From assembly GCA_045536365.1 (NCBI GenBank), contig JAZSNL010000014.1:19473-83472 (forward strand): a DNA stretch of 64,000 bases, written 5' to 3'. The notes under the pieces were generated by a model. It saw only the letters and a program-made list of their open reading frames with translations, had not been told where the DNA came from and searched no databases. Source of the stretch: Bacilli bacterium. GTDB taxonomy: Bacteria; Bacillota_I; Bacilli_A; ML615J-28; CAG-313. Positions 16,219 to 60,451 of this stretch are shown piece after piece (within the stretch, counting starts at the first letter, position 1; each line of letters opens with the position of its first letter). A program made the position numbers and the translations under genes.

Positions 16219-18609
16219 TTAGATTTGATTACCAGCAAACTGAGTTTGATATAAAGTATAATAAATTCCTTGTTTTTCAAGCAGTTCTTCATGACGTCCA
16301 ATTTCAACAATTTCACCATGGTCTAATACTACAATCTTATCGGCATCTCTGATTGTTGATAATCTATGAGCAATAATCAAACTTGTTCTATTCTTCATTA
16401 ATTGAACCATACCATCTTGAATATTCTTTTCTGTTCTAGTATCAACACTTGAAGTAGCTTCGTCTAAAATTAAGATTTTAGGATCAGCTAAAATTGCTCT
16501 CGCGATAGAAATCAATTGTCTTTGACCACCACTTAGATTACTACCAGATTCACTTAAAACAGTTTCATATTGTTCAGGTAATAATTCAATAAATTTATCA
16601 CAATTACTCAACTTGGCAGCACGATAAACTTCTTCATCAGTCGCTTCTAAATTACCATATTTAATATTATTTTTAACACTATTTTTAAATAACACTGTAT
16701 CTTGTAATACAATCGCAATTGCATTACGTAGACTTTCTTTTGAATAATTAGTTATATCTTCTCCACCAATTAGGATTTTACCACTGTTAATTTCATAGAA
16801 TCTCATTAGCAAATTAACTACTGTTGTTTTACCACTACCTGTTGCTCCTACTAAAGCAATTTTTTGTCCTGGTTCAATTGTTAAATTAAAGTTTTTAAGA
16901 ACAGGTTCTCCTTCTACATATGAGAAATTAACATCTTTAAATTCAATTGTATCAACTGCCTCTTCTTCAGTTAATTCAAGAGTTCCATCATTAACTTCAA
17001 CACTTTCATCTAACACTGCAAATACTCTTTCTGCAGCTGCTAAACTAGATTGAATTTGTGAATATAAGTTTGCAATCATATTAATAGGTCTAGTAAATTG
17101 TCTAGAAAGATTAGTGAATGTAATAATTAAACCAGTTGTTAAATTATTAATTCCTAAGAATACGAACAACGCACCAAATCCTACAATTAATAAGTAACCA
17201 ATATTACCAATAATATTCATTAAAGGTCCCATTGCTCCACCAAATAAACTAGCTTTAAAGCCAAATAATCTTAAATATCCACTAATTTCATTAAATTTAG
17301 CTTCAACATCTTCTTCCTTACCATAAGCAGCTACTGTCTTATGACCCACTACCATTTCTTCAACTTGTGCATTTAACTCACCAATTAATGCTTGTTGAAC
17401 ACGGTAATATTTTCTCATAATCTTTGTAAGTGCCTTAGTAGTCACTAAAGTTAAACCTAAAGAAACGAAACTTAATAATGTTAGTAAAGGACTATAATAC
17501 ACCATTATCGCAAAAGCACCGATAATAGTAATAACTGATGAAATAAGTGAACTAATAGATTGTGAAATTGTATTTGTAATACTATCAACATCATTAGTCA
17601 TTCTACTCATTATATCACCATGTTTATTAGTATCAAAGAATCTAATTGGTAAATAAACAAGACGATCAAATAAATCTTTTCTCATTTTTCTAACTGTATT
17701 AAGTGATAAATAAGCAGATACAACAGAAGAAATACCAGTAAAAATAGAAGATAGGATATAAACAATCATCATAGTAATCAAAATACTTACTATTTTATTT
17801 GGATTTTTAGTACCTATAGAATAGTAACCAATTGTTTTACCATTTATTTCCCACTTATTATTTTCACCAACTCTAATTTCTAATTCTTCAATTGAAGAAT
17901 TATTAACGGATTGATATAAACGATAATTAGTTAGTTTGTTATTTATAACCAAATAACCATTTTGATTAACATCAATAACAAACTCTAAATTTTTACTTTT
18001 ATCATCCGCAGAATATGCTAAAAATTCAGTTGTTTCTCCATTAATAACAAAATAATAATCTTCATTAATACTTATTTTCATATCGCTAAAGATAATATCA
18101 CTACTAGACCCATTATATTTAGTTTCTACTTTAGAATTATTTGCAAGTAAATTACCGTTTTCATCTAATTTAAATTCTAAATCACTACTTACAACGATAG
18201 AGTCTATCGCATTACCTTGTAAGACAGGACTTATAAGAGATGCTGCAGAAGATAAGATAACAATTGCAAATATTGCAATTAAATATTTTTTATTAAAAGA
18301 TAAATATTTAACAAGTCTCTTTAAAGTACCTTTTTTATCCTTAGCTTTCTCCCCAAACATTCTTCCACCTGCAGGTCCTCTATTACCTCTTGCACGCATA
18401 AGTTCAAGATTACTCATCTTATTAGAATATTTATCTAATACTTCTTGTTCTAATTCTTTTCTTTCAATTCTTTTTTGTTTTCTTTCAACTCTTTTATTTT
18501 GTCTTTCTATAACTTTAGGATTATTTTTATGTTGATTAATTATCTTATTAACATCAAACCCTTTAGTTGATAAATATAAAACTAAACTAAATAACACAAG
18601 AAATAACAT
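16219..18609 (-). CDS. ABC exporter, fused permease/ATPase subunit (type I exporter, MsbA-like) with N-terminal basic extension and large extracytoplasmic insert
   Basis: 796 aa. Six-TM exporter domain plus NBD with Walker A GATGSGKTT, signature LSGGQRQ and Walker B ILILDEAT. A ~170-aa insert follows TM1. Confidence 0.85.
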   Translation of the reverse strand: MLFLVLFSLVLYLSTKGFDVNKIINQHKNNPKVIERQNKRVERKQKRIERKELEQEVLDKYSNKMSNLELMRARGNRGPAGGRMFGEKAKDKKGTLKRLVKYLSFNKKYLIAIFAIVILSSAASLISPVLQGNAIDSIVVSSDLEFKLDENGNLLANNSKVETKYNGSSSDIIFSDMKISINEDYYFVINGETTEFLAYSADDKSKNLEFVIDVNQNGYLVINNKLTNYRLYQSVNNSSIEELEIRVGENNKWEINGKTIGYYSIGTKNPNKIVSILITMMIVYILSSIFTGISSVVSAYLSLNTVRKMRKDLFDRLVYLPIRFFDTNKHGDIMSRMTNDVDSITNTISQSISSLISSVITIIGAFAIMVYYSPLLTLLSFVSLGLTLVTTKALTKIMRKYYRVQQALIGELNAQVEEMVVGHKTVAAYGKEEDVEAKFNEISGYLRLFGFKASLFGGAMGPLMNIIGNIGYLLIVGFGALFVFLGINNLTTGLIITFTNLSRQFTRPINMIANLYSQIQSSLAAAERVFAVLDESVEVNDGTLELTEEEAVDTIEFKDVNFSYVEGEPVLKNFNLTIEPGQKIALVGATGSGKTTVVNLLMRFYEINSGKILIGGEDITNYSKESLRNAIAIVLQDTVLFKNSVKNNIKYGNLEATDEEVYRAAKLSNCDKFIELLPEQYETVLSESGSNLSGGQRQLISIARAILADPKILILDEATSSVDTRTEKNIQDGMVQLMKNRTSLIIAHRLSTIRDADKIVVLDHGEIVEIGRHEELLEKQGIYYTLYQTQFAGNQI

Positions 18610-48868: not shown

Positions 48869-50017
48869 TTATTTTAAATATTTTTTTAATGTCTCAACAC
48901 GATCTAATCTTTCCCAAGATAAGTCTAAATCATCTCTGCCAAAATGTCCATAAGCAGCAGTTTGTTCATAAATAGGTTTTCTTAAATCAAGTGCCGCAAT
49001 AATTGCTTTAGGACTCATATCAAAATTAGCTTTAACAATTTCAATTAATTCAACTTCATTATACTTTGAAGTACCAAATGTTTCAATACAAATAGAAATA
49101 GGTTGGCTCATACCAATTGCATATGATAATTGAATTTGCATTTTTTCAGCAAATCCAGCTGCAACCATATTCTTTGCAATATATCTAGCCATATAAGTAG
49201 CACTTCTATCAACTTTAGTTGGGTCTTTTCCACTGAAAGCCCCTCCACCGTGAGGAACATATCCTCCATAAGTATCAACAATAATTTTTCTTCCTGTTAA
49301 ACCAGAATCTCCTTTTGGTCCACCAATAACAAATCTTCCTGTAGGATTAACTAAAATAATAGTATTTTCATCCATTAATTCACTAGGAACAACTGTTTTA
49401 ATAACATCATTAATCATAACTTGTCTAATCCAATCAAGATCAACACTTTCATCATGTTGAGTAGAAATTAAAATAGTATGAATTCTTCTAACACTACCAT
49501 CTTCTGCATATTCAACAGAAACTTGTGTTTTACCATCAGGTCTTAATTGAGATGGATACTTAGTTTTACGTACTTCAGTTAATTTTCTTGCTAACTTATG
49601 AGCTAACATTATTGCAAGAGGCATGTACTCAGGAGTTTCTTTACAAGCATAACCAAACATAATCCCTTGGTCACCAGCACCTTCTCCATCACGAACACCC
49701 ATCGCAATATCAGGAGATTGTTCTTTTAAACTTGTAATAACTGCTAAGTTTTCAGCATCAAATCCAATTTTACCTCTATTATAACCAATACGATCAACTA
49801 CTCTTCTCGCGATTTCTTGAACATCACAATAACCTTTTGTAGTAATTTCTCCCATGATTAATACAAGACCTGTTGTTGCACAAACTTCACAAGCTACTTT
49901 AGAATAAGGATCTTGTTTTAAAATATCATCTAAAATCGCATCAGATATTTGGTCACACACTTTATCAGGATGACCTTCTGTTACAGATTCAGATGTAAAT
50001 ATTCTTATATTCTCCAT
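48869..50017 (-). CDS. metK: S-adenosylmethionine synthetase
   Basis: [19 protein letters not shown]..., [12 protein letters not shown] and DTYGG motifs. RBS aagagg 7 nt before the ATG at 50017 (the listed ORF starts 6 codons upstream). Confidence 0.9.
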
Positions 50018-50089
50018 AATAATACCTCTTTTCATTCTTTAATATTATACTATATTTTTCCTTTTTTTGCAAGCACCAATACCTTTTAA

Positions 50090-50740
50090 TTATTCTTTAA
50101 AAAATAAATCCCATTTCCCACCAATTGGATTTTCAATAAATTCCATTTTTTCCTTCGTTACAGGATGATTAAATGATAAACTATATGCATGTAAATAAAG
50201 TTTTCCATCATACTTTTCATCATATAAGGCATCTCCTAAAACAGGATTATTTCTACTACTAAATTGAACTCTTATTTGATGATGACGACCTGTTAATAAT
50301 TCAATATCAACTAAATTTAAATTATCTAATCTCTTAACTACTTTATATTTTAATTTAGCTTCCTTGCCATTCTTATCAACATGTGAAACGCCAGTTGATT
50401 CATTTTTCATTAAACTATCAACCATTTCACCACTATCTGAAATAGTTCCTTTAACAATTGCATAATACTTTTTACTAAACAAATGATTTCTAATATCATT
50501 TGATAATCTAGAAGATGCTTTTGAAGTCTTACCAAATACCATTACACCACTTGTCATTCGGTCAAGTCGGTGAATTAACCCTAAATAAACATTACCAGGT
50601 TTTTGATATTTTATTTTAATATATTCTTTTATTAAACTTAACATATCATCATCTTTTGTATTATCAGCCTGTGATAAAATACCACTAGGTTTAACAACAA
50701 CAATGATATGATTATCTTCATATAAAATTTTAAACTTCAT
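50090..50740 (-). CDS. RluA-family pseudouridine synthase
   Basis: HRLDRMTSGVMVF catalytic Asp motif and downstream GRHHQIRVQF. The ATG at 50740 is preferred; the listed ORF uses a TTG. Confidence 0.8.
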   Translation of the reverse strand: MKFKILYEDNHIIVVVKPSGILSQADNTKDDDMLSLIKEYIKIKYQKPGNVYLGLIHRLDRMTSGVMVFGKTSKASSRLSNDIRNHLFSKKYYAIVKGTISDSGEMVDSLMKNESTGVSHVDKNGKEAKLKYKVVKRLDNLNLVDIELLTGRHHQIRVQFSSRNNPVLGDALYDEKYDGKLYLHAYSLSFNHPVTKEKMEFIENPIGGKWDLFFKE

Positions 50741-50855
50741 AAACATCAACCTTTCTTAATATATTATACCAAATTTATCATTAAAGGTAAATCAAAACAT
50801 TAATATTGATAAATTACTAATAAACATATTAAGTAAAAATTTCCTATCATTTATC

Positions 50856-50884
50856 TTGAAATCGTAAATTAATTTTGTTATAAT
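50856..50884 (+). promoter_or_regulatory. consensus sigma-A promoter upstream of the HTH gene and ispG
   Basis: TTGAAA, a 17-nt spacer, then TATAAT. Confidence 0.55.
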
Positions 50885-50914
50885 TAGGTGAATATAAAAG
50901 AATGGAGTTTTATT

Positions 50915-51475
50915 ATGGCAGATACTACTAATCAAGTTGTCTCTCCTGAGACACCAGCTGTTGAAGAACCCAAGAAAAAAATAAAATTATCAAAAATCGA
51001 AAGAAAGAAACTGCGTGTTATTAACAAACTAATCGCTGGTGAAATCAACGGTACTCAAGCAGCTAAAAAACTAGGAATAACAACAAGACAAGTTCGTAAC
51101 TTAAAACGTCAAGTTTTAAATGAAGGAACTGAAGGTGTTATTCATAAAAACAAACAATACAAACCTTACAACACATACGATGAAGAAATCTCAACATTCA
51201 TCTGTAAACTATATCGTCGTGAATATAGAGGAACAAACTTCTCTAAATTCGCAAGAATAGTTCAAGAAGAATACGGAATTGAAGCTTCTCGTAGTACAAT
51301 CTACAACTTCTTACGTCGTGGACACATTCGTTCACCACAAAGAAAGAAGAAAAAGAAAAAGATCGTACAAGTAGTTGACGCAAACGGCAATCCAGTTGAA
51401 CAACCAAAGCCAAAAAAGACAACTACTAAAAAAACAACAAAAACTAAAAAAACAACTAAGACTCCTGCAGAATAA
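50915..51475 (+). CDS. HTH-domain protein resembling the N-terminal (non-catalytic) region of IS481/ISNCY-type transposases, with lysine-rich C-terminal tail; no DDE domain
   Basis: RBS ggag 7 nt before the ATG at 50915 (the listed ORF starts earlier). LSKIERKKLRVINKLIAGEINGTQAAKKLGITTRQVRNLKRQVLNEGTEGVIHKNK and ...FSKFARIVQEEYGIEASRSTIYNFLRRG follow the pattern of transposase N-terminal HTH plus helper regions. The ORF then terminates in KKKKKK...KKTTTKKTTKTKKTTKTPAE. Confidence 0.5.
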   Translation: MADTTNQVVSPETPAVEEPKKKIKLSKIERKKLRVINKLIAGEINGTQAAKKLGITTRQVRNLKRQVLNEGTEGVIHKNKQYKPYNTYDEEISTFICKLYRREYRGTNFSKFARIVQEEYGIEASRSTIYNFLRRGHIRSPQRKKKKKKIVQVVDANGNPVEQPKPKKTTTKKTTKTKKTTKTPAE

Positions 51476-51502
51476 TGCGGAGTTTTATTTTAAGGAAAAT
51501 CT

Positions 51503-52543
51503 ATGAAAAAAGAAATCAAAATTGGAAATATTACAATAGGAGGAAACAATCCTATTATAATTCAATCAATGACTAACATTAAAACATCAAATATCAAAGA
51601 CGTAGTTAATCAAATAAACGCTCTTTCTTCAAAAGGTGCTAAAATTGTCCGCCTTGCAGTAGCAGATGAAAATGATGCTTTATCAATAAAAGAAATTAAA
51701 AAACAAGTATCTGTTCCTCTAGTAGCAGATATCCACTTTGATTATAAACTTGCTCTTCTCTCAATCGAAAACGGAGCAGACAAAATTAGAATCAATCCTG
51801 GAAATATCAAAAAAGAAAACCTTATTCATATTATTAATAAAGCAAAAGAATATAACATTCCTATAAGAATAGGTGTAAACAGCGGTTCACTAGAAAAAGA
51901 GCTATACGATAAACATGGAGTCACAACCACTTCTTTATACGAATCATTAATTAATCATATTAAATTCTTTGAAGACAATGACTTTACTAACCTAGTTCTT
52001 TCAGTCAAATCAACAGATATTCAAACTAACTATGAAGTAAATAAACTTATCTATGAAAACACAAACTATCCTATTCATATAGGATTAACAGAATCTGGTT
52101 CAGTAAAAGCCGGAATTATTCGATCAAGCTATGCCTTAGGAACCTTAATTAAAGAAGGAATAGGTAATACTATTCGTGTTTCTTTAACAGGTGATCCAAT
52201 AAATGAAATCGGTGTTGCAAAAGAAATTCTTTCAATGTTTAACAAATACGATAAACCTACTCTAATTTGTTGTCCTACTTGTGGTAGAACACAATACGAT
52301 ATGGAACCGATTGTAAACGAAATCGAAGAATTTTTAAGCACTATTAACACACCTTTAAAAGTTGCAATAATGGGTTGTGCAGTCAATGGTCCTGGTGAAG
52401 CAAGAGATGCTGATATTGGTATTGCAGGCGGAGTTAATGAAGCATTATTATTTAAAAAAGGAACTCCAATTAAAAAAGTTCCTCAAGATCAAATTATTAA
52501 TGTTTTAAAACAAGAAATTATAGAAATAATAAAAAGCAGATAA
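51503..52543 (+). CDS. ispG: 4-hydroxy-3-methylbut-2-en-1-yl diphosphate synthase (flavodoxin-type)
   Basis: 346 aa. IKIGNITIGGNNPIIIQSMTN N-terminus and C-terminal Cys ligands CPTCGRT...GCAVNGPGE of GcpE. Confidence 0.9.
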   Translation: MKKEIKIGNITIGGNNPIIIQSMTNIKTSNIKDVVNQINALSSKGAKIVRLAVADENDALSIKEIKKQVSVPLVADIHFDYKLALLSIENGADKIRINPGNIKKENLIHIINKAKEYNIPIRIGVNSGSLEKELYDKHGVTTTSLYESLINHIKFFEDNDFTNLVLSVKSTDIQTNYEVNKLIYENTNYPIHIGLTESGSVKAGIIRSSYALGTLIKEGIGNTIRVSLTGDPINEIGVAKEILSMFNKYDKPTLICCPTCGRTQYDMEPIVNEIEEFLSTINTPLKVAIMGCAVNGPGEARDADIGIAGGVNEALLFKKGTPIKKVPQDQIINVLKQEIIEIIKSR

Positions 52544-52559
52544 AATCTGCTTTTTTTAT
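52531..52559. terminator. bidirectional terminator between ispG (+) and the TIR gene (-)
   Basis: aaaaagcagat-aaaa-tctgcttttt hairpin plus T-run. The TIR gene's stop codon lies within it. Confidence 0.65.
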
Positions 52560-53584
52560 TTTAAGATAGTTTTTTCATCAACAACTTCAAGTAATTCTTT
52601 TTCCATTCTTTCAATATCAAAATTACTATTTAAATAATCAATATATTGATATTTAGATAATTCTTTATAAAAATCAGTTAAAAACTCTGTTTTATCTAAT
52701 CTTACAGCAACCATTTTTTTCTTCAACTTCTTAGCTGTTTTTAATTCCGTATAAACATAAGAATCAACTTTCATTGAATTTTTAGAAGTAAAAACTAATA
52801 ACATTGCACTTTGTTTTATTTTGCTACCTAAAACTTTTTCCCAATCGGCTCCTTTTTTAATATCATCATCGTACCAAACGCGACATTTCAATTGTTGTAA
52901 CATTGACAATATTATTTTAACTCTTTTAAAATCTTTATGATTATAACTGATAAAAACAAAAGGATCATTACCGTCATAAGGTAAATCAACATATTTTAAA
53001 TTATTCATCTTCTTTTCTTTTTGTTTACCTTTTTTAATAATATAATCAAATTGTTTAAATAAAGATTTTTTATTTAATACACTATCCTCTCCAGCATATA
53101 CTACTAATTCATCAAACGATGAGCGATAATCAATATATAATTTTTTTATTTCTTTCGCCATTTCTAATCTTTCTTTTTTATCATCTTCTGATAAATCAGT
53201 TCTTGCGAAAGTCATTTCTTCTAATATTACAGCATCAACATATGCACATATTACAGTTACATAATTAGAATACATTTGTTTTAATGTTCTAATTAATTCA
53301 ATATTATGAGCAGATAACGTTAATAAAATATCTTTTTTACCCTTTATTCCATCCTCAAATTGACTTAAATTAAAACCTATATATCTTTTTCGATTAAAAT
53401 ATTTAAAATCACATCTATCTACTTCTTCATAAGAAACGTGATTTTTCTTCTTATCAACAATTTTTCTATCCAATTCAGGATCATATATCAACTTATTAAC
53501 ATATTCAAACTTATGTTTTGTTTTTAAATATTCAATACATTCATTACCAAATTCACCCATAGTTCCAAATAAAATAACTAACAT
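52556..53584 (-). CDS. TIR-domain protein: unknown ~200-aa N-terminal domain + C-terminal TIR domain
   Basis: 342 aa. C-terminal PFVFISYNHKDFKRVKIILSMLQQLKCRVWYDDDIKKGADWEKVLGSKIKQSAMLLVFTSKNSMKVDSYVYTELK is the bacterial TIR pattern (FISY..D, W.D...G..W, candidate catalytic Glu in YTEL). N-terminal LVILFGTMGEFGNE resembles a degenerate P-loop with no Lys. RBS aggagg 5 nt before the ATG. Confidence 0.65.
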   Translation of the reverse strand: MLVILFGTMGEFGNECIEYLKTKHKFEYVNKLIYDPELDRKIVDKKKNHVSYEEVDRCDFKYFNRKRYIGFNLSQFEDGIKGKKDILLTLSAHNIELIRTLKQMYSNYVTVICAYVDAVILEEMTFARTDLSEDDKKERLEMAKEIKKLYIDYRSSFDELVVYAGEDSVLNKKSLFKQFDYIIKKGKQKEKKMNNLKYVDLPYDGNDPFVFISYNHKDFKRVKIILSMLQQLKCRVWYDDDIKKGADWEKVLGSKIKQSAMLLVFTSKNSMKVDSYVYTELKTAKKLKKKMVAVRLDKTEFLTDFYKELSKYQYIDYLNSNFDIERMEKELLEVVDEKTILK

Positions 53585-53605
53585 AAAATCCTCCTATATA
53601 TTATC

Positions 53606-53634
53606 ATTATACATTTTTTAACATCTTTAGTCAA
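53606..53634 (-). promoter_or_regulatory. consensus sigma-A promoter for the TIR gene
   Basis: On the minus strand: TTGACT, a 17-nt spacer, then TATAAT, followed by aggagg and the ATG. Confidence 0.55.
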
Positions 53635-53642
53635 TCTCAAAA

Positions 53643-53686
53643 CAATAAAAAAGAGAATTTAAACGATTACTCGTTAAATTCTCTTT
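53643..53686. terminator. intrinsic terminator after the giant lipoprotein gene (minus strand)
   Basis: agagaatttaaacg-attact-cgtttaaattctct hairpin, with tttttt on the minus strand. Confidence 0.6.
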
Positions 53687-53695
53687 ATTTTTATA

Positions 53696-56600
53696 TTATT
53701 CTAATGTAGCTTTATAAGCAGCGTATGCAGCATCTAACGCATCTTTACTTGCAAGAACACCATAATCAGATGTTGCTGTAGTTTGAGCAGCAGCATAATA
53801 GTTATTAGTATAAGTTATTGTACCTGAGCCTTTTGTAGTTAATTTAAATGCAGTCTGACTATCTAAATAGTTATACATAATATTTTGTTTAGATCCTGTT
53901 TGACAATCAACAAAGTTAAATATATTACCTCCAAGATTATATAATTCATTACCAATAAATGTAACAGATGAATTAGCAGTTTGATTAGGGAAATAGAATC
54001 CTGAACCAATTCCTGTTCCTCCATTGAATACATTATCTTGAACAGTAATAGTAACATCTTGTGTCATTAAAGGTCTAATGTATAAAGTATAATTGGCTGT
54101 TGCCCATAAACATTCATTATTATTGAAAACGAATGTTCCGCGTACATCGTTACATCTTGCTACTTCACTATTTGAATGAGATGTACCACCATTGCTGAAT
54201 TTATTATTTTGTATATCAGCATTAGTAAGTGTACCATAAATTGCCATTGCGTTTCTTCCAGCGGCACCAGTACATGTTATATTGTTACCGATAAATACAA
54301 AACCGTTGATTGCAACATCACTTGCAATGATTCCTGTTCTACCACCAGTAGTTGACTTACCTGTACCTGTAATAATATTATTTTTAACTGTTAAATTACT
54401 AGTTGCAGTTGCTACGTAAATAGCAGATCCAGTACCTGTTATTGATACACCATTCAAAGTAAATCCAGTCGCACTTACTGAAACAAGACCTTTAATAATT
54501 GCTTCAGAACTTCTTGTTTCATTATAAGCAACACCGTAGTTAGGACCTACTAATTTAATGTTTGCAACAGAAATAGTTAATGCTTCTGAATATGTTCCAG
54601 CAAATACATAAATTACATCATTTTCTTGTGCAGCTTCTAAAGCAGCAGTAATAGATGTAAAGATTTGAGTTCCATATGAATACTTAGTTCCATTAATTCT
54701 ATAATTAGAAACTTCGAATCCAGCATTTACAAATAATGTAGGAGCAGCTTCAGTAATTGTTGCAGCTTCTTCATCTGTTAATTCTAATTCAATAACTTCA
54801 TCTTCAGCCCATTTAGCATATAATTGATATGCTTTTTGAGAGCCTGCTTCGATTTCAGTTAATGGAGAACCTGTAAATTCAGCATTGTCATACCAACCAC
54901 CAAAGATATAACCTTCTAAACTTGGAGTAGGTAAAGCAGTTCCATCTGCTTTTAAATATTTTTCAGCGTAATTGCTACGATCAAATGCTTCTTGAGAATA
55001 TACAGTACCAGTAATAGTACAACTTGAAGATGTTTCAGCAGGAATACCAGCAAGAGTTACATATGAACCAATATAAGTTGCTTTATTATTATAAATATTT
55101 GCTAAGCTTTCATTTTCAGCAGCTGCAGGATCATACCATGTAATTGCATAATTATAAGGTTTAGTAATATTTGCATTTCCACTTACGATTTCAGAAATTA
55201 CATATAAATCTTCAATTTGAGTTTCTTGTAATAAAATATAGTACCAGTATTTAGGAGTTGCAGTTGTTAACATACCATTTCCAGCACCTCCACTATTATA
55301 TGTTAAATATCTTGTAACTGTAAATGTAGTTTGAACTTTTTCTGAGTCGTATACCCATTCAGTACCCATGTTATATGATATTTCATAAGCATTTTCAACC
55401 CAATTAGCATATAATGTTACATTTCCAGCAGAACCGCTTTCAATCTTGGTAATAGCTTCACCTGCGAATTCAGCATTATCATACCAACCAAGGAATGTAT
55501 GATTTTCTTTTGTTGGAGTTAATAAAGTGATATCAGCAGAATTAACGTTATATTTTGCAGGAGCAAATAATGCAGTACATCCAGCTTTAATCGCAGAATC
55601 AGAGTAATCAGCAGTAACAAAGTTAGCATTTTGAGTATATTTAGCTTGTCCTACCCAACCTCTTAATTCATAAGCAATTTCATAGATATAGTTACCATTT
55701 GCTGCATGTAATTCAGCTTGAGAATTATATTTATTGAAGTTAGAATAAGCAGGTTTGTTAGCACTGCTAGCAACTGTAGCAATATATTGAACTAACCAAT
55801 TCCATTTAGCTCTATAAGTAGCATTGTATAAGAATAATGAAGCATCACTTATTTCATCCCATGAACCTAATGCATAGAATGTTTCAACTGTATGAGTTTT
55901 ACCTCTTGCAGCGTTATAATCAGCTAAGAAATCTGCAACTGCAGCTTCATATGATTCGTATTGAATTAATGAACCACCATCTAATTCATAAGAAATAGTA
56001 TAAGTTGCTAATTCCCAAACTGCTGTTAATTCAATAACACCAACTACAGGAGTTTCAAAATCATAATCAACACCATTTAATTGCCATTTAACAAATGTAT
56101 ATCCTTTTAATTCAGGATCAACTGGTTTTTCTGCTTTTGAACCATGGTTAACATTTTGAGTTTCAACATCAGAACCACCATTTGAATTAAATGTTACAGC
56201 ATAAGTAATAGCCTCAAATCCAGCATATAATTTTAAATCACCAGTAGCAGTTGTAGGGATTTCAGTTAATGCATCACCAGTTAAGTCTGCATTTAAGAAC
56301 CAACCTAAGAAAGTATAACCATCTTTTGTTGCGTTAGGTAATGCAGTTGCAACACCTTCAATATATTCAGTAGGTAATCCTTCTGCAGTACCACCATTTA
56401 ATTCATAAGAAAGATTTGAAGAGATAGCGTTAGCCATCCAACCAGCATATAACACTATATCGTTATTATCATCTTTTGTTATTTCAGTAATAGGAGCACC
56501 TGTGCATTCAGCATTATCAAACCAACCAGTAAATGTATAATCAGTTCTAGTAGGAGTAGGTAATACTAATCCAAATCCAACTTTATAGAATGTAGGAGCA

Positions 56601-59600
56601 TCTACTAATGTACCTTCGTTTAAATTTAATGTTAATGATTTAGAAGGAGCCATGAAATAAGCATATTCATATTTTCTTGTTTCTTCATCAGCTAAAGCAC
56701 TACCTGCAGTAACACCAGCACCAGTAACAGTAGCAGGAACAGAATTTAATACTTGTCCTTCAGAATCTAAGTATAAGTTCTTATCAAATTGAACTGGTTT
56801 ACCACCGTTAATATGAACATACTTAGTAACATTTTCGAATACATTGAATCTTACATCAACTAATGTAGCAGATACACCAGATTCAAATAGACCATCAATA
56901 TTTTGAGTATCACCAGTGAAATGATTATCATAAACTAATGCAGAACCAATTCTAATTCTTAATAATGCAGCTGCAGAGTTAGATACACCACCACATGTTG
57001 AAGCATCAACATTATTAGAAATAAAGTTAACTTTTTCTAATCCAGCAGTTACCCATACAAAGAATTGACCGATATTATCAATATCACAATTTTGAACTGT
57101 TAATACAACTGGGTTAGTAGTAGAAATAGTTCCTTTATAGAATGTATTCATTCTAGTAATATGACAATTATTAAATGTTAAATTATAGGCTTTACTACTA
57201 GGTTGGAAATAAACACCTGCAGATGTTGCAGCAGCAGAACCTCTAAGAGTAACTGATTCAAATCTAATATCACTTGCAGCAACATTACTAGATACATTAG
57301 CAGTAACTGTAATTTCAACACCTTCAACACTTTGACCTACAAATGTTAATGACTTATTAATAACAGAGCCTAATGTATATTTACCATCTAAGATATTAAT
57401 AACAGAATCATTTTTTGCAGATGAAATAGCATCATTTAAGTTATTAAATAAGTTAACACCATAGAAATAATGATTTTCATTATATAGAACACATGCATTT
57501 TCAACAGCATCAGCTGCTACTACTATATTAGTAACATCAGCTGCCACTACTGTAAATTCAATAGTTCCTTTAATTAAAGGATCAATCATTGAAGAAACAG
57601 TAATTATAACATTACCTTCAGCAATAAATTTAACAATACCATTTTCAACAGTTGCAATTTCTTCATTAGCAGAAGCATAAGAAACTAAAGTTTGATATCC
57701 TTCAGGTCCTTCAAATGCTAATTGTAATGCTAAACTAGCACCTAACATAACTTTATTTGTAGTTGCAGAAACTGTAATTGATGTTGGAGCAACTGGTTCA
57801 ACAATAATTAATAATGCTTTCTTAGCAGCATCTAATGCTTCTTCAACACCTTCAACAGAAGTTGCAGCTGCGATTAAGCCTTTTTGAACTTCTAATTCAG
57901 CAGCAAATTCATCATAATTTTCTTCATATTTAGAAGCTTTAACGATTTCATCAGTTAAAATATATTCAGCTAATGCTTCTTGAGCAAGATTCTTAGCATT
58001 ATCAACAACATGAATCCATTTAGCATGTAATTCAAGATTACCTGTAGAACCTTTTTCAATCTTAGCGATTGCATTACCGTTAAATTCTGCATTATCAAAC
58101 CAACCTAAGAAAATGTGATCAGCTTTAATAGGTTGTATTAATTCAATATCTTCAGACTCAACAGTATATTTAGAATCAGCTAAGCAAGCCATAAATTTAG
58201 TTTTTACTTCTTCAGTTGAGTAATCGGCTGTATGATAGTTAGCATTCTCAGTATATTTAATTTGTCCTACCCAACCTCTTAATTCATAAGCTATACTGTA
58301 AATATAGTTACTATTAACAGCATTAAATTCAGCTTGACTATCATGATCATTAAATGCTTCCCAAGCTTTCTTATTAGCAGAACCAGCAACACTTGCAATA
58401 TAATCTACTAACCAAGTCCATTTAGCACGATAATTAGCATTATATAAGAATAATGATGCAGCGCCAATTTCACCCCAAGAGCCTAAAGAAGAGAAAGATT
58501 CAACAGTATGAGAAGTTCCTCTTGCAGCATTATAATCTTTTAAGAAATCAGCAACAGCTTCTTCGTATGACGCATAATTTCTTAAAATACCTTCATTAGT
58601 ATTATAAGAAATACTATATTCAACAATTTTCCAAGTTGCAACAACTTCTACATCTTCTGCAGGCATTGTAGCAGGAACTTCAGGCATCCAACCAGTAAAT
58701 GTATAACCAGCTTTTTCAGGTGCAGCAACAGCGGCAATTTCTTCTAAGTAGTCATATTCAACTTCTTGTTTAACACCATCAACATTAATTGTTAATGTAT
58801 ATTGATTAATTGTCCACTCAGCAACAACTTCTACATCTTCTGCAGGCATTGTAGCAGGAACAGCAGGTGTCCAACCAGCGAAAGTGTAACCAACTTTTTC
58901 AGGTGCAGCTGGAGCAGCAACTTCAGCTTGATAGTTATATTTAACAGTTTGTTTAACACCATCAACATTAATTGTTAATGTATATTGGTTAATTGTCCAT
59001 AAAGCAACAACTTCAATATCAGTAGCAGGCATTGTTGTAGGAATAGCAGCAGACCAAGAAGAGAATGTATAACCAACTTTTTCAGGTGCAGCTGGAGCAG
59101 CAACTTCTTCTTGATATTTATATTCAACAACTTCTTTAACACCATCAACATCAACTGTTAATGTATAAGAATTTCTTGAATAATATACTCTTAATACAAG
59201 AGATCCATCAGCTAAGATAGTAGCTGATTCTAAAGCATCTTTATGTTCAGCATTATGTTCAAAACCAGTAACTGTTCTAACAACAGCTTCTGCTTCAGAA
59301 CCAGTTTCACCAAATAATGATTCAACTTTTGCATCTTTCACATAAGAGCCATCTAATGCTTCAAAGTAATGTTCAACTTTATAAGCAGTATTTGTATTAG
59401 ATGTCCATGTTGCAACTAATTCTAAATCCTTAGCAGGCATAGATAATTCAGCAAATGCTTCGCCTTCTAGTGTCCAGCCTAAGAATGTATAACCAGTTTT
59501 AGCAGCAACACCTAAATTTAATGCTTGGCCGTATTTATAAGTTTGAGCTTCTTTTTCTTCTCCACCAGCAGCATCAAATGTTACTTTGTAAGAATTTCTA

Positions 59601-60451
59601 GAATAATAAACTTTTAATACAAGTGATCCATCAGCAGCAATTTGAGCTTCTTCTAAAGATTCAGGATGTTTTTCATTATGAGTAAATCCTTCTTTTACTA
59701 ATGCTTCAGCTTCTACTAATTCTTCAGTAGTACCAGCTAATTTTTCACTTGATTCTAATTTATATGTTCCATCTAAAGCTTCAAAGTAATGTTCAACTGC
59801 ATATGCAGTATCATCATTAGCTTCCCATTTTGCATATAATTCGATTGCTTCTTCTGTTAAAACAGTATTCCAATCAAATAAACTAGTTAAAGTTTTATCA
59901 TACCAACCAAGGAATGTATAACCAACTCTTGTAGGATCAGCTGGTTGTTTACCTTGTAATGTTTGACCTACTTCAACTTCAACGATAGGTTCAACTGCAG
60001 TTCCACCATTTGAAATGAAACTTACTGTTCCACCAAATTGTTTATATGCAACTTGTACATATACTTTACCTTCGTTATCACAGATAGCTTCAGTAATATT
60101 TAATAAATTATTAACTTCAGCCTCTGGATCTAGATCGATAGGTTCTTTTTCATCATTTAATAATACCCAATAAACTTCGTAAGAAGATGGAATTTCATAA
60201 CCATCAGCTTTTAATTGATCACGAATTTGAGGTATTTGAGAAACTAAAAGAGTTTCTCCTTTTACAACTTCGATTTCTTTAGTTGATACAACAGTACCTG
60301 CTGCATCATTAAAGATGAAGACTACTTTATAAGTATCTAGTTTTGAACTATCAACAGGTCCATGATCTAAAGAACATGATCCAAGTGTTAATGCGATAGC
60401 AGCAAAAACAAGAATAAATAAAGCTTTAATACGAGACTTTACATTTTTCAT
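53696..60451 (-). CDS. giant cell-surface lipoprotein (2251 aa) with Listeria-Bacteroides repeats, parallel beta-helix (pectate-lyase-like) regions, Big_2 domain and internal duplicated modules
   Basis: Lipobox LTLGSCS. At least 10 GYTF.GW...A.W motifs (PF09479-type). Two regions dense in NN..TGTG / GxNxxC beta-helix repeats. Big_2-like segment ITVSATTNKVMLGASLALQ...IITVSS. Three tandem 59-aa repeats and two ~130-aa duplicated modules. Confidence 0.8.
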   Translation of the reverse strand: MKNVKSRIKALFILVFAAIALTLGSCSLDHGPVDSSKLDTYKVVFIFNDAAGTVVSTKEIEVVKGETLLVSQIPQIRDQLKADGYEIPSSYEVYWVLLNDEKEPIDLDPEAEVNNLLNITEAICDNEGKVYVQVAYKQFGGTVSFISNGGTAVEPIVEVEVGQTLQGKQPADPTRVGYTFLGWYDKTLTSLFDWNTVLTEEAIELYAKWEANDDTAYAVEHYFEALDGTYKLESSEKLAGTTEELVEAEALVKEGFTHNEKHPESLEEAQIAADGSLVLKVYYSRNSYKVTFDAAGGEEKEAQTYKYGQALNLGVAAKTGYTFLGWTLEGEAFAELSMPAKDLELVATWTSNTNTAYKVEHYFEALDGSYVKDAKVESLFGETGSEAEAVVRTVTGFEHNAEHKDALESATILADGSLVLRVYYSRNSYTLTVDVDGVKEVVEYKYQEEVAAPAAPEKVGYTFSSWSAAIPTTMPATDIEVVALWTINQYTLTINVDGVKQTVKYNYQAEVAAPAAPEKVGYTFAGWTPAVPATMPAEDVEVVAEWTINQYTLTINVDGVKQEVEYDYLEEIAAVAAPEKAGYTFTGWMPEVPATMPAEDVEVVATWKIVEYSISYNTNEGILRNYASYEEAVADFLKDYNAARGTSHTVESFSSLGSWGEIGAASLFLYNANYRAKWTWLVDYIASVAGSANKKAWEAFNDHDSQAEFNAVNSNYIYSIAYELRGWVGQIKYTENANYHTADYSTEEVKTKFMACLADSKYTVESEDIELIQPIKADHIFLGWFDNAEFNGNAIAKIEKGSTGNLELHAKWIHVVDNAKNLAQEALAEYILTDEIVKASKYEENYDEFAAELEVQKGLIAAATSVEGVEEALDAAKKALLIIVEPVAPTSITVSATTNKVMLGASLALQLAFEGPEGYQTLVSYASANEEIATVENGIVKFIAEGNVIITVSSMIDPLIKGTIEFTVVAADVTNIVVAADAVENACVLYNENHYFYGVNLFNNLNDAISSAKNDSVINILDGKYTLGSVINKSLTFVGQSVEGVEITVTANVSSNVAASDIRFESVTLRGSAAATSAGVYFQPSSKAYNLTFNNCHITRMNTFYKGTISTTNPVVLTVQNCDIDNIGQFFVWVTAGLEKVNFISNNVDASTCGGVSNSAAALLRIRIGSALVYDNHFTGDTQNIDGLFESGVSATLVDVRFNVFENVTKYVHINGGKPVQFDKNLYLDSEGQVLNSVPATVTGAGVTAGSALADEETRKYEYAYFMAPSKSLTLNLNEGTLVDAPTFYKVGFGLVLPTPTRTDYTFTGWFDNAECTGAPITEITKDDNNDIVLYAGWMANAISSNLSYELNGGTAEGLPTEYIEGVATALPNATKDGYTFLGWFLNADLTGDALTEIPTTATGDLKLYAGFEAITYAVTFNSNGGSDVETQNVNHGSKAEKPVDPELKGYTFVKWQLNGVDYDFETPVVGVIELTAVWELATYTISYELDGGSLIQYESYEAAVADFLADYNAARGKTHTVETFYALGSWDEISDASLFLYNATYRAKWNWLVQYIATVASSANKPAYSNFNKYNSQAELHAANGNYIYEIAYELRGWVGQAKYTQNANFVTADYSDSAIKAGCTALFAPAKYNVNSADITLLTPTKENHTFLGWYDNAEFAGEAITKIESGSAGNVTLYANWVENAYEISYNMGTEWVYDSEKVQTTFTVTRYLTYNSGGAGNGMLTTATPKYWYYILLQETQIEDLYVISEIVSGNANITKPYNYAITWYDPAAAENESLANIYNNKATYIGSYVTLAGIPAETSSSCTITGTVYSQEAFDRSNYAEKYLKADGTALPTPSLEGYIFGGWYDNAEFTGSPLTEIEAGSQKAYQLYAKWAEDEVIELELTDEEAATITEAAPTLFVNAGFEVSNYRINGTKYSYGTQIFTSITAALEAAQENDVIYVFAGTYSEALTISVANIKLVGPNYGVAYNETRSSEAIIKGLVSVSATGFTLNGVSITGTGSAIYVATATSNLTVKNNIITGTGKSTTGGRTGIIASDVAINGFVFIGNNITCTGAAGRNAMAIYGTLTNADIQNNKFSNGGTSHSNSEVARCNDVRGTFVFNNNECLWATANYTLYIRPLMTQDVTITVQDNVFNGGTGIGSGFYFPNQTANSSVTFIGNELYNLGGNIFNFVDCQTGSKQNIMYNYLDSQTAFKLTTKGSGTITYTNNYYAAAQTTATSDYGVLASKDALDAAYAAYKATLE
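58640..59170. repeat. three tandem 177-nt repeats inside the giant lipoprotein gene
   Basis: Encode YTLT(I/V)(N/D)VDGVK...GYTF.GW...EDVEVVA.W (59 aa) x3. Near-identical DNA copies are visible at 58.75-59.15 kb. Confidence 0.75.

Follow-up and report, generated by a model that had tools for sequence, protein, structure and literature searches.

A rare single gene joining a guanylate-kinase-like pseudokinase domain to a TIR domain, probably an undescribed anti-phage module

Bacterial immunity is known to make repeated use of TIR NADases fused to varied sensors, and the limiting question for such sensor-TIR proteins is what each sensor recognises. SpbK and other single-polypeptide TIR abortive-infection proteins are each encoded by one gene, which combines a variable non-TIR sensing part with a TIR domain that carries the catalytic glutamate, and they have no partner gene. 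Examples include sensor-plus-TIR systems of E. coli (PMC11350192). The gene analysed here, located in a 64,000-nucleotide stretch of DNA (the window), is likewise a single gene of this kind and, as with SpbK, its host is a Firmicute. A guanylate-kinase-fold (GK-fold) pseudokinase as the sensing part, however, is described for none of the SpbK-like proteins in the searchable literature, and their sequence likeness to the GK-like/TIR protein is limited to the TIR fold. Judged from its sequence, the gene probably constitutes an anti-phage module on its own, of a rare kind not described before. The searchable literature contains no prior description of a GK domain joined to TIR or to HEPN, or of an inactive bacterial GK, and PADLOC 2023 contains none of the GK-like plus TIR architecture; as far as these two sources show, the architecture is undescribed, as had been proposed in the original prediction.

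All of the motifs on which that prediction was based (LVILFGTMGEFGNE, FISYNHKD, WYDDD, and SYVYTELK) lie in one open reading frame, the product of which has full-length relatives (P0001-P0004) at 96, 89, 54, and 35% identity. The protein has two domains, a guanylate-kinase-like pseudokinase at the N-terminus and, at the C-terminus, a TIR domain of catalytically competent appearance (Table 1). Within the linker between them, Pro-202 is invariant and Gly-205 nearly so in an alignment of 29 family members.

Table 1. Features of the GK-like/TIR locus, with positions numbered along the window
Feature	Position	Strand	Basis or remark
ispG	51503..52543	+	neighbour of the TIR gene
Bidirectional intrinsic terminator, common to ispG (+) and the TIR gene (-)	52531..52555	.	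terminator scan
GK-like/TIR coding sequence	52556..53584	-	ORF list; 342 aa, ATG start, stop codon included
TIR domain	52604..52957	-	aa 210-327
Codon GAA of E280 (YVYTELK), putative catalytic residue in the NADase site of the TIR domain	52745..52747	-	invariant in 29/29 aligned members
Conserved linker	52958..52999	-	aa 196-209, YVDLPYDGNDP; alignment of 29 family members
N-terminal guanylate-kinase-like pseudokinase domain	53000..53584	-	aa 1 to ~195; Walker-A region reads GTMGEFGNEC
Shine-Dalgarno AGGAGG	53590..53595	-	5 nt 5' of ATG; sequence read
Sigma-70-type promoter TTGACT-17-TATAAT	53606..53634	-	11/12 match
Hairpin and U-run ending the giant Flg_new gene, insulating the TIR promoter	~53644..53686	-	fold and shuffles
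2251-aa Flg_new-repeat protein	53696..60451	-	neighbour of the TIR gene

The bacterial TIR pattern noticed in the C-terminal part survives profile search: Pfam TIR_2 (PF13676), for which the cutoff is 28 bits, scores 62.6 bits over residues 210-327 (6.4e-17; profile positions 1-118 of 122). The domain has the flavodoxin-like TIR fold. Across the family this half contains the motifs F-x-S-Y, R-x-W-Y-D, and S...V...E-L with an invariant glutamate, which make up the TIR NADase signature. The glutamate in SYVYTELK, singled out earlier as the candidate catalytic residue, is E280, and it is kept throughout the alignment in relatives at 24-89% identity. E280 occupies the place of the glutamate in the S-x-W-C-x-x-E-L motif of active TIRs, and its equation with the catalytic glutamate of known NADases is made by motif position rather than by residue-level structural superposition.

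In contrast to the original prediction, in which the N-terminal domain could not be assigned, structure prediction and profile search of representatives identify it as a guanylate-kinase fold with core, NMP-binding, and lid parts. Its structural matches include 4f4j, 3uat, 1kgd, 3shw, 9ijj_4P, and 1t0h, which cover MAGUK GK, LRGUK, and CaV-beta GK-like modules. Pfam Guanylate_kin (PF00625) gives no match to the GK-like/TIR protein even at E <= 1, its only matches being among the distant relatives in which the P-loop is intact; the N-domain profile itself reaches GK-like proteins that have an intact Walker A and pass Pfam Guanylate_kin, the best at 2.4e-13. A PDB sequence search with the N-domain returned designed helical repeats only, which we rejected as spurious. 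Alignment of the N-domain profile to a manually entered sequence of yeast GUK1 using hhalign is weak (E 0.038) and is used as a guide to residue correspondence only.

The domain resembles the enzymes in shape but has lost the residues by which they work. Walker A GxxGxGK[ST] is absent, the window protein having G7-TMGEF-G13-NEC in its place, and no lysine is conserved at this site across the family, so that the earlier description of a nucleotide-binding-derived domain with a P-loop-like motif lacking lysine was right in spirit; the motif is the Walker-A region of a dead GK fold. In a bridge alignment with manually entered canonical GK sequences, the TTRxxR arginines are gone, K-L-I-Y standing where TTR would be, and Y62 and I69 replace the guanine-binding glutamate and the phosphate-binding tyrosine. 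Other residues, putatively of the cleft, are kept, namely the invariant K31, Y62, G70, and R139, with G70 forming a turn with F71 and R139 lying in the lid region. Because the Walker-A Lys and Ser/Thr, the TTRxxR arginines, and the guanine-binding glutamate are all missing relative to Gmk (PF00625, EC 2.7.4.8) and other P-loop NMP kinases, the aligned residues indicate a guanylate-kinase fold stripped of the residues for catalysis and GMP binding, with which no kinase activity is possible. That the cleft binds a ligand is conjecture, given that the canonical GMP-contacting residues are not kept. One family member, P0058, fits GxxxxGKS fortuitously.

The MAGUK GK domains (PSD-95, DLG, CASK, ZO-1), LRGUK, and CaV-beta are likewise GK folds turned from enzyme into binding module. 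MAGUK GK domains, however, belong to eukaryotic scaffolds in which they are paired with PDZ and SH3 domains, and their phosphopeptide binding depends on GMP-site arginines that they have retained, whereas the dead-GK family has lost the GMP-site TTRxxR arginines; the likeness is one of principle and not of membership. The GK-like/TIR protein is a bacterial inactivation independent of the MAGUK one and fused to an effector domain, and it is a further case, here from a prokaryote, of a guanylate kinase that has become a non-catalytic module. A quite different view of the same two domains, which we consider very unlikely, is that the C-terminal domain is a nucleotide-processing enzyme resembling TIRs and nucleoside 2-deoxyribosyltransferases, or a purely scaffolding TIR, that has no NADase activity and acts together with the GK-like domain on (d)NMPs. 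Matches in BFVD, which include phage guanylate kinases and deoxyribosyltransferases, are in keeping with such an enzyme, but sequence profiles select TIR_2, TIR, and ThsB_TIR rather than Nuc_deoxyrib_tr, the NADase signature and its invariant glutamate are present, and a GK-like domain devoid of kinase residues would supply no phosphorylated substrates.

The N-domain family comprises 98 clusters among 1.84 billion representatives, largely confined to uncultured gut and rumen Firmicutes. Its N-domain is nearly always fused to TIR (29 clusters with one TIR, and 19 clusters of long forms, in 10 of which two TIRs are detected); a few members have in its stead a domain that carries a HEPN-like RNxxxH motif. 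This alternative C-terminal domain, found in four clusters, has an invariant Y-R-N-x-A-A-H; its Pfam HEPN matches are sub-threshold (E 0.046 and 0.056), for which we keep the name HEPN-like motif, and a profile search of PDB gave no match to it. A pattern-limited scan of 185,579 GTDB species representatives, which used a five-sequence alignment, found at least 3 family loci. Matches in phage and plasmid collections are to the TIR half only, with no evidence there of phage- or plasmid-borne copies of the gene.

Outside the TIR-fused family, the nearest sequence relatives of the N-domain are tandem GK-like kinases with an intact P-loop (P0073-P0098), which its profile reaches at E 6e-13 to 1e-4 in a search of 1.84 billion proteins. 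They share with the dead-GK domain the CDxxY...G-F, lid-arginine, and F-D motifs. Unlike the dead-GK family, they keep GxxGxGK[ST] and TTRxxR and consist of two GK-like domains with no TIR. One of these intact-kinase relatives lies within an operon that also encodes a GT4-conflict glycosyltransferase and a NUDIX-like protein, a multi-gene arrangement in contrast to the solitary dead-GK/TIR gene. The tandem GK-like kinases of the GT4-conflict/NUDIX type, the dead-GK/TIR proteins, and the dead-GK/HEPN-like proteins may form one conflict-system lineage.

We infer NADase activity and an anti-phage function from homology and context, and our main reading, to which we assign a probability of about 58%, is a self-contained module of the abortive-infection type in which an NADase TIR is governed by a pseudo-GK sensor. 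In the uninfected cell the GK-like/TIR protein would be kept inactive. A cue from the invader, perhaps a phage protein or a phosphate-bearing nucleotide, would engage the pseudo-GK cleft; real guanylate kinases open and close around their ligand cleft. The resulting change of conformation or oligomeric state would allow TIR domains to assemble composite active sites, which would hydrolyse NAD+ by means of E280 and so stop growth of the infected cell. The formerly unassigned sensor is now placed on a well-understood fold, for which open-closed mechanics and the ligand cleft are textbook knowledge, and as a result this regulatory hypothesis is directly testable.

A bolder and rather doubtful extension is that a clade of dead GKs derived from nucleotide-centred conflict systems has been reused as a portable sensor for swappable suicide effectors (TIR NADase, double TIR, and HEPN-like RNase), independently repeating the MAGUK trick. 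The dead cleft would then bind a phage-made or phage-altered nucleotide, or would serve as an integrated decoy of a nucleotide kinase targeted by phage, and its engagement would lead to TIR assembly. If true, the dead-GK cleft would constitute a new sensor class for one-gene immunity. Because the family is small and mostly from uncultured gut and rumen Firmicutes, and its function is inferred, we regard the significance as moderate.

Thoeris ThsB and the TIR effectors of CBASS, Pycsar, and SPARTA have the TIR fold and its glutamate in common with the GK-like/TIR protein. Matches of the protein to PADLOC models are weak and confined to its TIR part; those to TIR-SAVED and Aga_TIR profiles are likewise weak, the SAVED_TIR model covering residues 207-287 alone, and the structural matches to SPARTA TIR-APAZ (8oz6 and 8spo) span about 145 residues of TIR only. 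There is no SAVED, STING, or CARF sensor (the N-domain being a GK fold) and no nearby cyclase, as would be found with the TIR effectors of CBASS, Pycsar, and type III CRISPR systems (TIR-SAVED, TIR-STING, CAP12, Cat1), and the window locus has neither an APAZ domain nor an adjacent short pAgo. More generally, SIR2, SLOG, STING, SAVED, Macro, and NB-ARC, predicted to be missing, are absent from PADLOC matches to the 44 ORFs of the window, from the Pfam matches listed (25 of 49 families), and from the full Pfam tables of nine neighbouring ORFs.

These comparisons bear on whether the TIR domain might instead be a ThsB-like signal generator. It would then produce a messenger, of the cyclic-ADPR-isomer or His-ADPR type, for an effector whose gene lies elsewhere in the genome, and would not itself deplete NAD+. 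We think this improbable. Pfam ThsB_TIR (PF08937) is a weak pass (24.4 bits, the cutoff being 21.2), PADLOC ThsB models match at E 0.003-0.012, and ThsB proteins also have variable sensing surfaces, all of which would suit such a role. On the other hand, the best TIR matches are to generic TIR_2, no ThsA model matches among the 44 window ORFs in the PADLOC scan, and at no locus examined, the 10 other family loci included, does a gene of the ThsA type (SIR2/SLOG, Macro, or TM) adjoin. Moreover, the N-domain is also joined to a HEPN-like domain that is no TIR, as would suit a C-terminal half that acts as the effector.

The gene lies, as first described, between ispG and a giant gene, now seen to encode a Flg_new-repeat protein. 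It is present in lineages in which IspG is 99% identical or the DNA is about 86% identical. In sister species with IspG 78-79% identical, the order metK-rluA-HTH-ispG-[slot]-Flg_new-pcp is kept but the TIR gene is absent, and the slot is occupied by an LRR gene of 201-204 aa in the opposite orientation. We considered this slot gene as a diverged GK-like domain and rejected the idea, given its LRR-type (BspA-like) repeats, recognised by eye, and its opposite strand. The gene therefore varies between lineages, and although the fold of its N-domain is a known one, it is no working Gmk and its synteny is not conserved, in contrast to what a housekeeping role would have led one to find. DNA homology ends at the 3' end of ispG. 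The GC content of the gene is 23%, compared with about 31% in its flanks, which could reflect a lysine-rich, poorly expressed gene instead of horizontal transfer.

Elsewhere in the family the neighbours differ at every locus examined, with no conserved partner, and the surroundings are mostly unremarkable genes of housekeeping or metabolism rather than defence islands. Some members adjoin a CAP12-type TIR protein, a 1395-aa DUF4062 protein, or ClpP together with a TraG coupling protein; DUF4062 has been reported as an antiphage NADase (bioRxiv 10.64898/2026.05.01.722283). The housekeeping surroundings in the window and at a further family locus (L024) could be read as the mark of a non-immune regulator or stress toxin, that is, an NAD+- or nucleotide-responsive growth-arrest switch (linked for example to sporulation, to alarmone levels, or to the nucleotide pool) in which the pseudo-GK reads a guanine-nucleotide-like metabolite. 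GK folds bind nucleotides, real Gmk of Firmicutes is a (p)ppGpp target, the window organism carries spore-germination genes (GerA), and one homologue has a gene for an NMN transporter of the PnuC type at a distance of 4.4 kb, all of which point the same way. We nevertheless give this switch only a small chance, since the GMP-binding residues are lost, the gene is missing from sister species in which the flanking gene order is the same, very few family loci turn up in the pattern-limited scan of species representatives, and defence-like or conjugative genes adjoin some of its members.

The TIR gene forms its own transcription unit. Its predicted textbook promoter and strong ribosome-binding site are both found, the promoter being the top-scoring site on the minus strand and lying 21 nt upstream of the ATG. 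This AT-rich region shows no general excess of promoter-like sites (16 found against 12.3 +/- 4.1 expected), and the case for the promoter thus rests on its score and position. Terminators were also anticipated on both sides of the gene, and hairpins are present downstream (-13.3 kcal/mol, z = -5.39) and upstream (-16.6 kcal/mol, z = -5.06), with none of 200 shuffles equally stable for the latter. Two further PADLOC matches in the window, mad3 and mad8 (MADS), were considered as defence genes and rejected, being the ATPase halves of two ABC transporters. The window also contains one mad2 PADLOC match.

Structural modelling assigns the 342-residue window protein's N-terminal half, which the original prediction had left unassigned, to the guanylate kinase (GK) fold. 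When the first structure model (pLDDT 76.7) is compared with the PDB using Foldseek, each of the best 36 matches is either a guanylate kinase or a MAGUK GK domain (E 4e-8 to 1.6e-5, probability 1.0, ~190 columns, 10-17% identity), with target TM scores of 0.32-0.74 (0.54-0.74 for stand-alone GK chains). An independent, sequence-based route agrees with this assignment: an N-domain profile searched against 1.84 billion representatives recovers 98 clusters, and the weaker matches (P0073-P0098) carry the canonical GxxGxGK[ST] Walker A and K-x-TTRxxR motifs and pass Pfam Guanylate_kin (best 2.4e-13). A Pfam scan of the N-terminal half itself matched no family, and its phmmer matches in the PDB were discarded as spurious. 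In a three-group MAFFT bridge alignment, where the match of individual residues to yeast and E. coli GK should be taken as indicative, the TIR-fused family lacks both TTRxxR arginines and the Walker-A Lys and Ser/Thr; the window protein reads GTMGEFGNEC there, as the earlier description of a P-loop-like motif without Lys had it. This alignment also shows that K31, the C-D-F-x-Y62 strand, the G70-F71 turn, R139 in the lid region, and F157-D158 are retained, and M1, G7, K31, Y62, G70, R139 and Q178 are the N-domain residues invariant across the family. The domain shares its fold with guanylate kinase enzymes but is not one of them, because none of the three defining features tested (a Pfam profile match, Walker A, and the GMP-binding residues) is present. 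Model and sequence together thus show a pseudo-guanylate-kinase that has lost its kinase capacity, and this identification of the formerly unassigned domain as a dead guanylate kinase is the main addition made here. A conceptual parallel is provided by the GK domains of MAGUK proteins, where an enzyme has become a binder.

The TIR assignment of the C-terminal half survives profile searching, with Pfam TIR_2 covering residues 210-327 (6.4e-17, 62.6 bits, cutoff 28). ThsB_TIR scores weakly above its cutoff, the classic Pfam TIR model falls slightly under threshold, PADLOC matches are weak and limited to the TIR part, and an NCBIfam scan of the protein gave no match. The candidate catalytic Glu proposed within SYVYTELK (E280) is invariant among 29 aligned family members (24-89% identity to the window protein), in which F211, S213, Y214, W237, D239 and W248 are nearly invariant; an AlphaFold model built from this alignment has a pLDDT of 87.2. 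Active TIR NADases bear their catalytic Glu in an S-x-W-C-x-x-E-L motif, to which, by position, we take S-K-N-S-x-x-x-x-S-Y-V-Y-T-E-L to correspond. By sequence, a TIR domain that keeps its putative active-site Glu intact makes up the C-terminal half. A TIR-like domain engaged in nucleotide processing or scaffolding seems to us very improbable. A TIR 33% identical to the window TIR half (E 4e-13) is encoded in a human faecal Bacteriophage sp. record, an unannotated contig (MT836178.1:8002-8412), where the GK-like half is unmatched.

The open reading frame contains all of the motifs quoted earlier (LVILFGTMGEFGNE, FISYNHKD, WYDDD and SYVYTELK), and the consensus promoter, strong ribosome-binding site and terminators on both sides are borne out by the signals tabulated below. 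Promoter-like sites show no enrichment across this AT-rich stretch (16 against 12.3 expected), so the case for the promoter lies in its score and position. Given this promoter, the AGGAGG and the flanking hairpins, the TIR gene is a solitary transcription unit; its GC content is 23%, compared to ~31% in the flanks.

Features of the GK-like/TIR gene, its slot and other genes discussed (window coordinates unless a locus is named)
Feature	Coordinates	Strand	Remarks
GK-like/TIR gene	52556..53584	-	342-aa ORF, ATG start
Promoter TTGACT-17-TATAAT	53634..53606	-	score 11/12, top site on that strand
AGGAGG	5 nt upstream of TIR-gene ATG	-	sequence read
Bidirectional terminator, common to ispG and TIR gene	52531..52555	both	hairpin fold z = -5.39
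Hairpin and U-run ending upstream Flg_new-repeat gene	~53644..53686	-	z = -5.06
Sister-species slot gene	L014:4513-5118; L016:2033-2647		equivalent to window 52544-53695
Giant Flg_new-repeat gene	53696-60451	-	2251 aa, lipoprotein-like N-terminus; syntenic in L014:5203-11889, L016:2727-9512
HTH_28/HTH_23 gene	50888-51475	+	195 aa, directly 5' of ispG
ABC transporter genes	16219-20336	-	796 and 575 aa
tRNA-Leu(CAA)	21496-21579		sole RNA gene found in window

The neighbourhood comparison proposed with the original prediction shows one slot, with ispG on one side and the giant Flg_new gene on the other, filled by the TIR gene in close lineages and by an LRR-type gene in sister species (L014-L019). 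The TIR gene is found there in contigs with a 99% identical IspG (L020), in contigs whose TIR proteins are 96% and 89% identical, and in locus L003, where the DNA is only ~86% identical to the window. The sister species (IspG 78-79% identical) keep the order metK - rluA-like - HTH - ispG - slot - Flg_new giant - pyroglutamyl peptidase - AP_endonuc_2, but the TIR gene is absent from their slot, which is occupied by a + strand gene of 201-204 aa, oriented opposite to the TIR gene, with LRR-type (BspA-like) repeats recognized by eye. Nucleotide homology with these species breaks off at window 52518-52534, where ispG has its 3' end. Together with the low GC content, these differences mark the TIR gene as a lineage-specific gene in a slot whose contents vary, and not as part of the conserved core. 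In L003, the ispG call is a fragment of 178 aa (L003:5664-7090 against window 51503-52543), and window 51657-51959 finds no counterpart in the alignment; this could reflect a disrupted gene or an assembly artefact. The far end of the locus carries an ISL3 transposase. Only short repeat fragments of the giant Flg_new gene align with sister-species DNA (compared stretch 50000-56000), and its product looks like a surface protein that evolves fast. The protein encoded upstream of ispG has a transposase-type helix-turn-helix and a tail rich in lysine and threonine (KKKKKKIV...KKTTTKKTTKTKKTTKT); it was ruled out as a mobile-element remnant because its position is conserved in the sister species.

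Among the 98 cluster representatives, 29 clusters have the window-type architecture (dead-GK plus one TIR, ~330-366 aa) and 19 are long forms, mostly of ~700-730 aa, in which a ~270-aa helical region and a second TIR follow the first (both TIRs detected in 10). Four (P0056, P0058, P0059, P0066) join dead-GK to a coiled coil and a ~220-aa domain with an invariant Y-R-N-x-A-A-H; GK-like proteins with intact Walker A and no TIR, mostly tandem, account for 16 (15 if P0058 is counted once), with five clusters other or unclassified and 29 fragments. P0058, whose GYTSMGKS fits GxxxxGK[S/T] by chance, is placed with the third architecture because it carries the YRNxAAH domain. This motif is an R-x4-H, HEPN-like motif; the domain gives only sub-threshold Pfam matches to HEPN_Swt1 (0.046) and HEPN_RiboL-PSP (0.056), and a PDB profile search with it returned no match. 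A single N-domain combined with one or another C-terminal domain of toxic type is what a sensor with swappable effectors would be expected to show, and the dead-GK family appears to be small and conflict-associated, with interchangeable effectors. The linker Y-V-x-L-P-Y-x-G is conserved in the 29-member alignment, with P202 invariant, suggesting mechanical coupling of the GK-like and TIR domains. The sole public name found, "toll/interleukin-1 receptor domain-containing protein", is generic.

Neighbours vary at every other family locus examined: a tRNA U5-methyltransferase; ThiF with a flavin reductase, and an M20 peptidase; a GNAT acetyltransferase; or DcuC with DUF975. Three loci have suggestive company. 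A 714-aa long form (L011:133-3777, Logan SRR22318481; dead-GK, TIR, helical spacer, second TIR) lies 12 nt downstream of a 495-aa CAP12/Pycsar-type TIR protein, giving two consecutive TIR genes; a HEPN-like form (dead-GK with YRNxAAH) adjoins ClpP and a TraG/VirD4 coupling protein (L021:109-1584), which suggests a conjugative element; and P0236, a family member, has a 1395-aa DUF4062 protein and an HTH_3 regulator as divergent neighbours (L026:5668-11002; GCA_045538555.1, JAZSRP010000049.1). DUF4062 has been reported as the antiphage TIR-like NADase "Swarozyc" (bioRxiv 10.64898/2026.05.01.722283). At L022:240-4645 (JGI 3300060480), co-directional genes encode a GT4-conflict glycosyltransferase (641 aa), a NUDIX-like protein (423 aa) and, last, P0088 (384 aa), a tandem guanylate-kinase-like protein with intact Walker A; together the three may amount to a conflict system, so far uncharacterised, that centres on nucleotides, and among active proteins P0088 is the nearest relative of the dead N-domain. 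A pattern-limited scan, with each GTDB species represented by one genome, turned up three loci, a lower bound, in Oscillospiraceae, Eubacteriales and Ruminococcus MAGs (33-34% identity) and did not recover the window's own species. Phage and plasmid collections matched the TIR half only, and the BFVD matches are phage guanylate kinases and viral TIRs as separate proteins, never the fusion.

The defining partners of Thoeris, CBASS/Pycsar, SPARTA and type III CRISPR TIR systems were sought and not found, in line with the absence of known TIR partners noted earlier, and the window protein is a member of none of these systems. A ThsB-like signal generator acting on a distant effector, a reading that the ThsB_TIR match brings to mind, is unlikely. 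Closest in way of working are SpbK and other single-polypeptide sensor-plus-TIR defence proteins; many such systems of E. coli have been shown to protect against phages by way of diverse sensing domains (PMC11350192). The literature searched contains no description of a bacterial GK-like/TIR or GK-like/HEPN protein, the nearest mention being of sporadic SLOG-guanylate kinase fusions in phages (PMC9503650). What is new is the class of putative sensor domain attached to a TIR effector; the general theme is already established, the evolutionary parallel is neat, and the hypothesis is clear and testable. The observation in the original prediction is confirmed for the gene, its signals and the TIR domain, and its interpretation is partly supported: the lone organisation and the lineage variability agree with it, the N-domain can now be assigned, and the NADase and anti-phage functions are predicted from homology and context.

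We favour, with a probability of roughly 0.6, a self-contained, abortive-infection-type NADase, as suggested by the invariant TIR Glu, the pseudo-GK partner, the conserved linker, the solitary unit, the sparse lineage-specific distribution and the alternative effector fusions. TIR domains generally need ordered self-association for active-site formation, and guanylate kinases open and close their cleft by large movements; on these grounds we propose that a cue would bind the residual pseudo-GK cleft (K31, Y62, G70-F71, R139) and shift the conformation or oligomeric state of the protein, which would license TIR assembly and then NAD+ hydrolysis. GMP itself is unlikely to be the ligand because its canonical contacts are gone; a phage protein and a different phosphate-bearing nucleotide are equally possible. 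A non-immune growth switch linked to nucleotides or NAD we hold to be unlikely.

Scanning the 44 window ORFs revealed nothing else defence-like, the remaining genes being housekeeping. PADLOC matches to mad3 and mad8 (1e-27 to 4e-10) were rejected as false-positive MADS defence calls because they cover only the ATPase halves of two ABC transporters; mad2 gave a single match (8e-25) among these ORFs. The window encodes GerA and GerAC (spore germination), HtpG, ThyA, DHFR and NAD synthase, and has ~30% GC and the standard genetic code. Several related contigs bear sample names in the style of ruminant metagenomes. The host is not a mollicute and is probably a low-GC Firmicute that forms spores.
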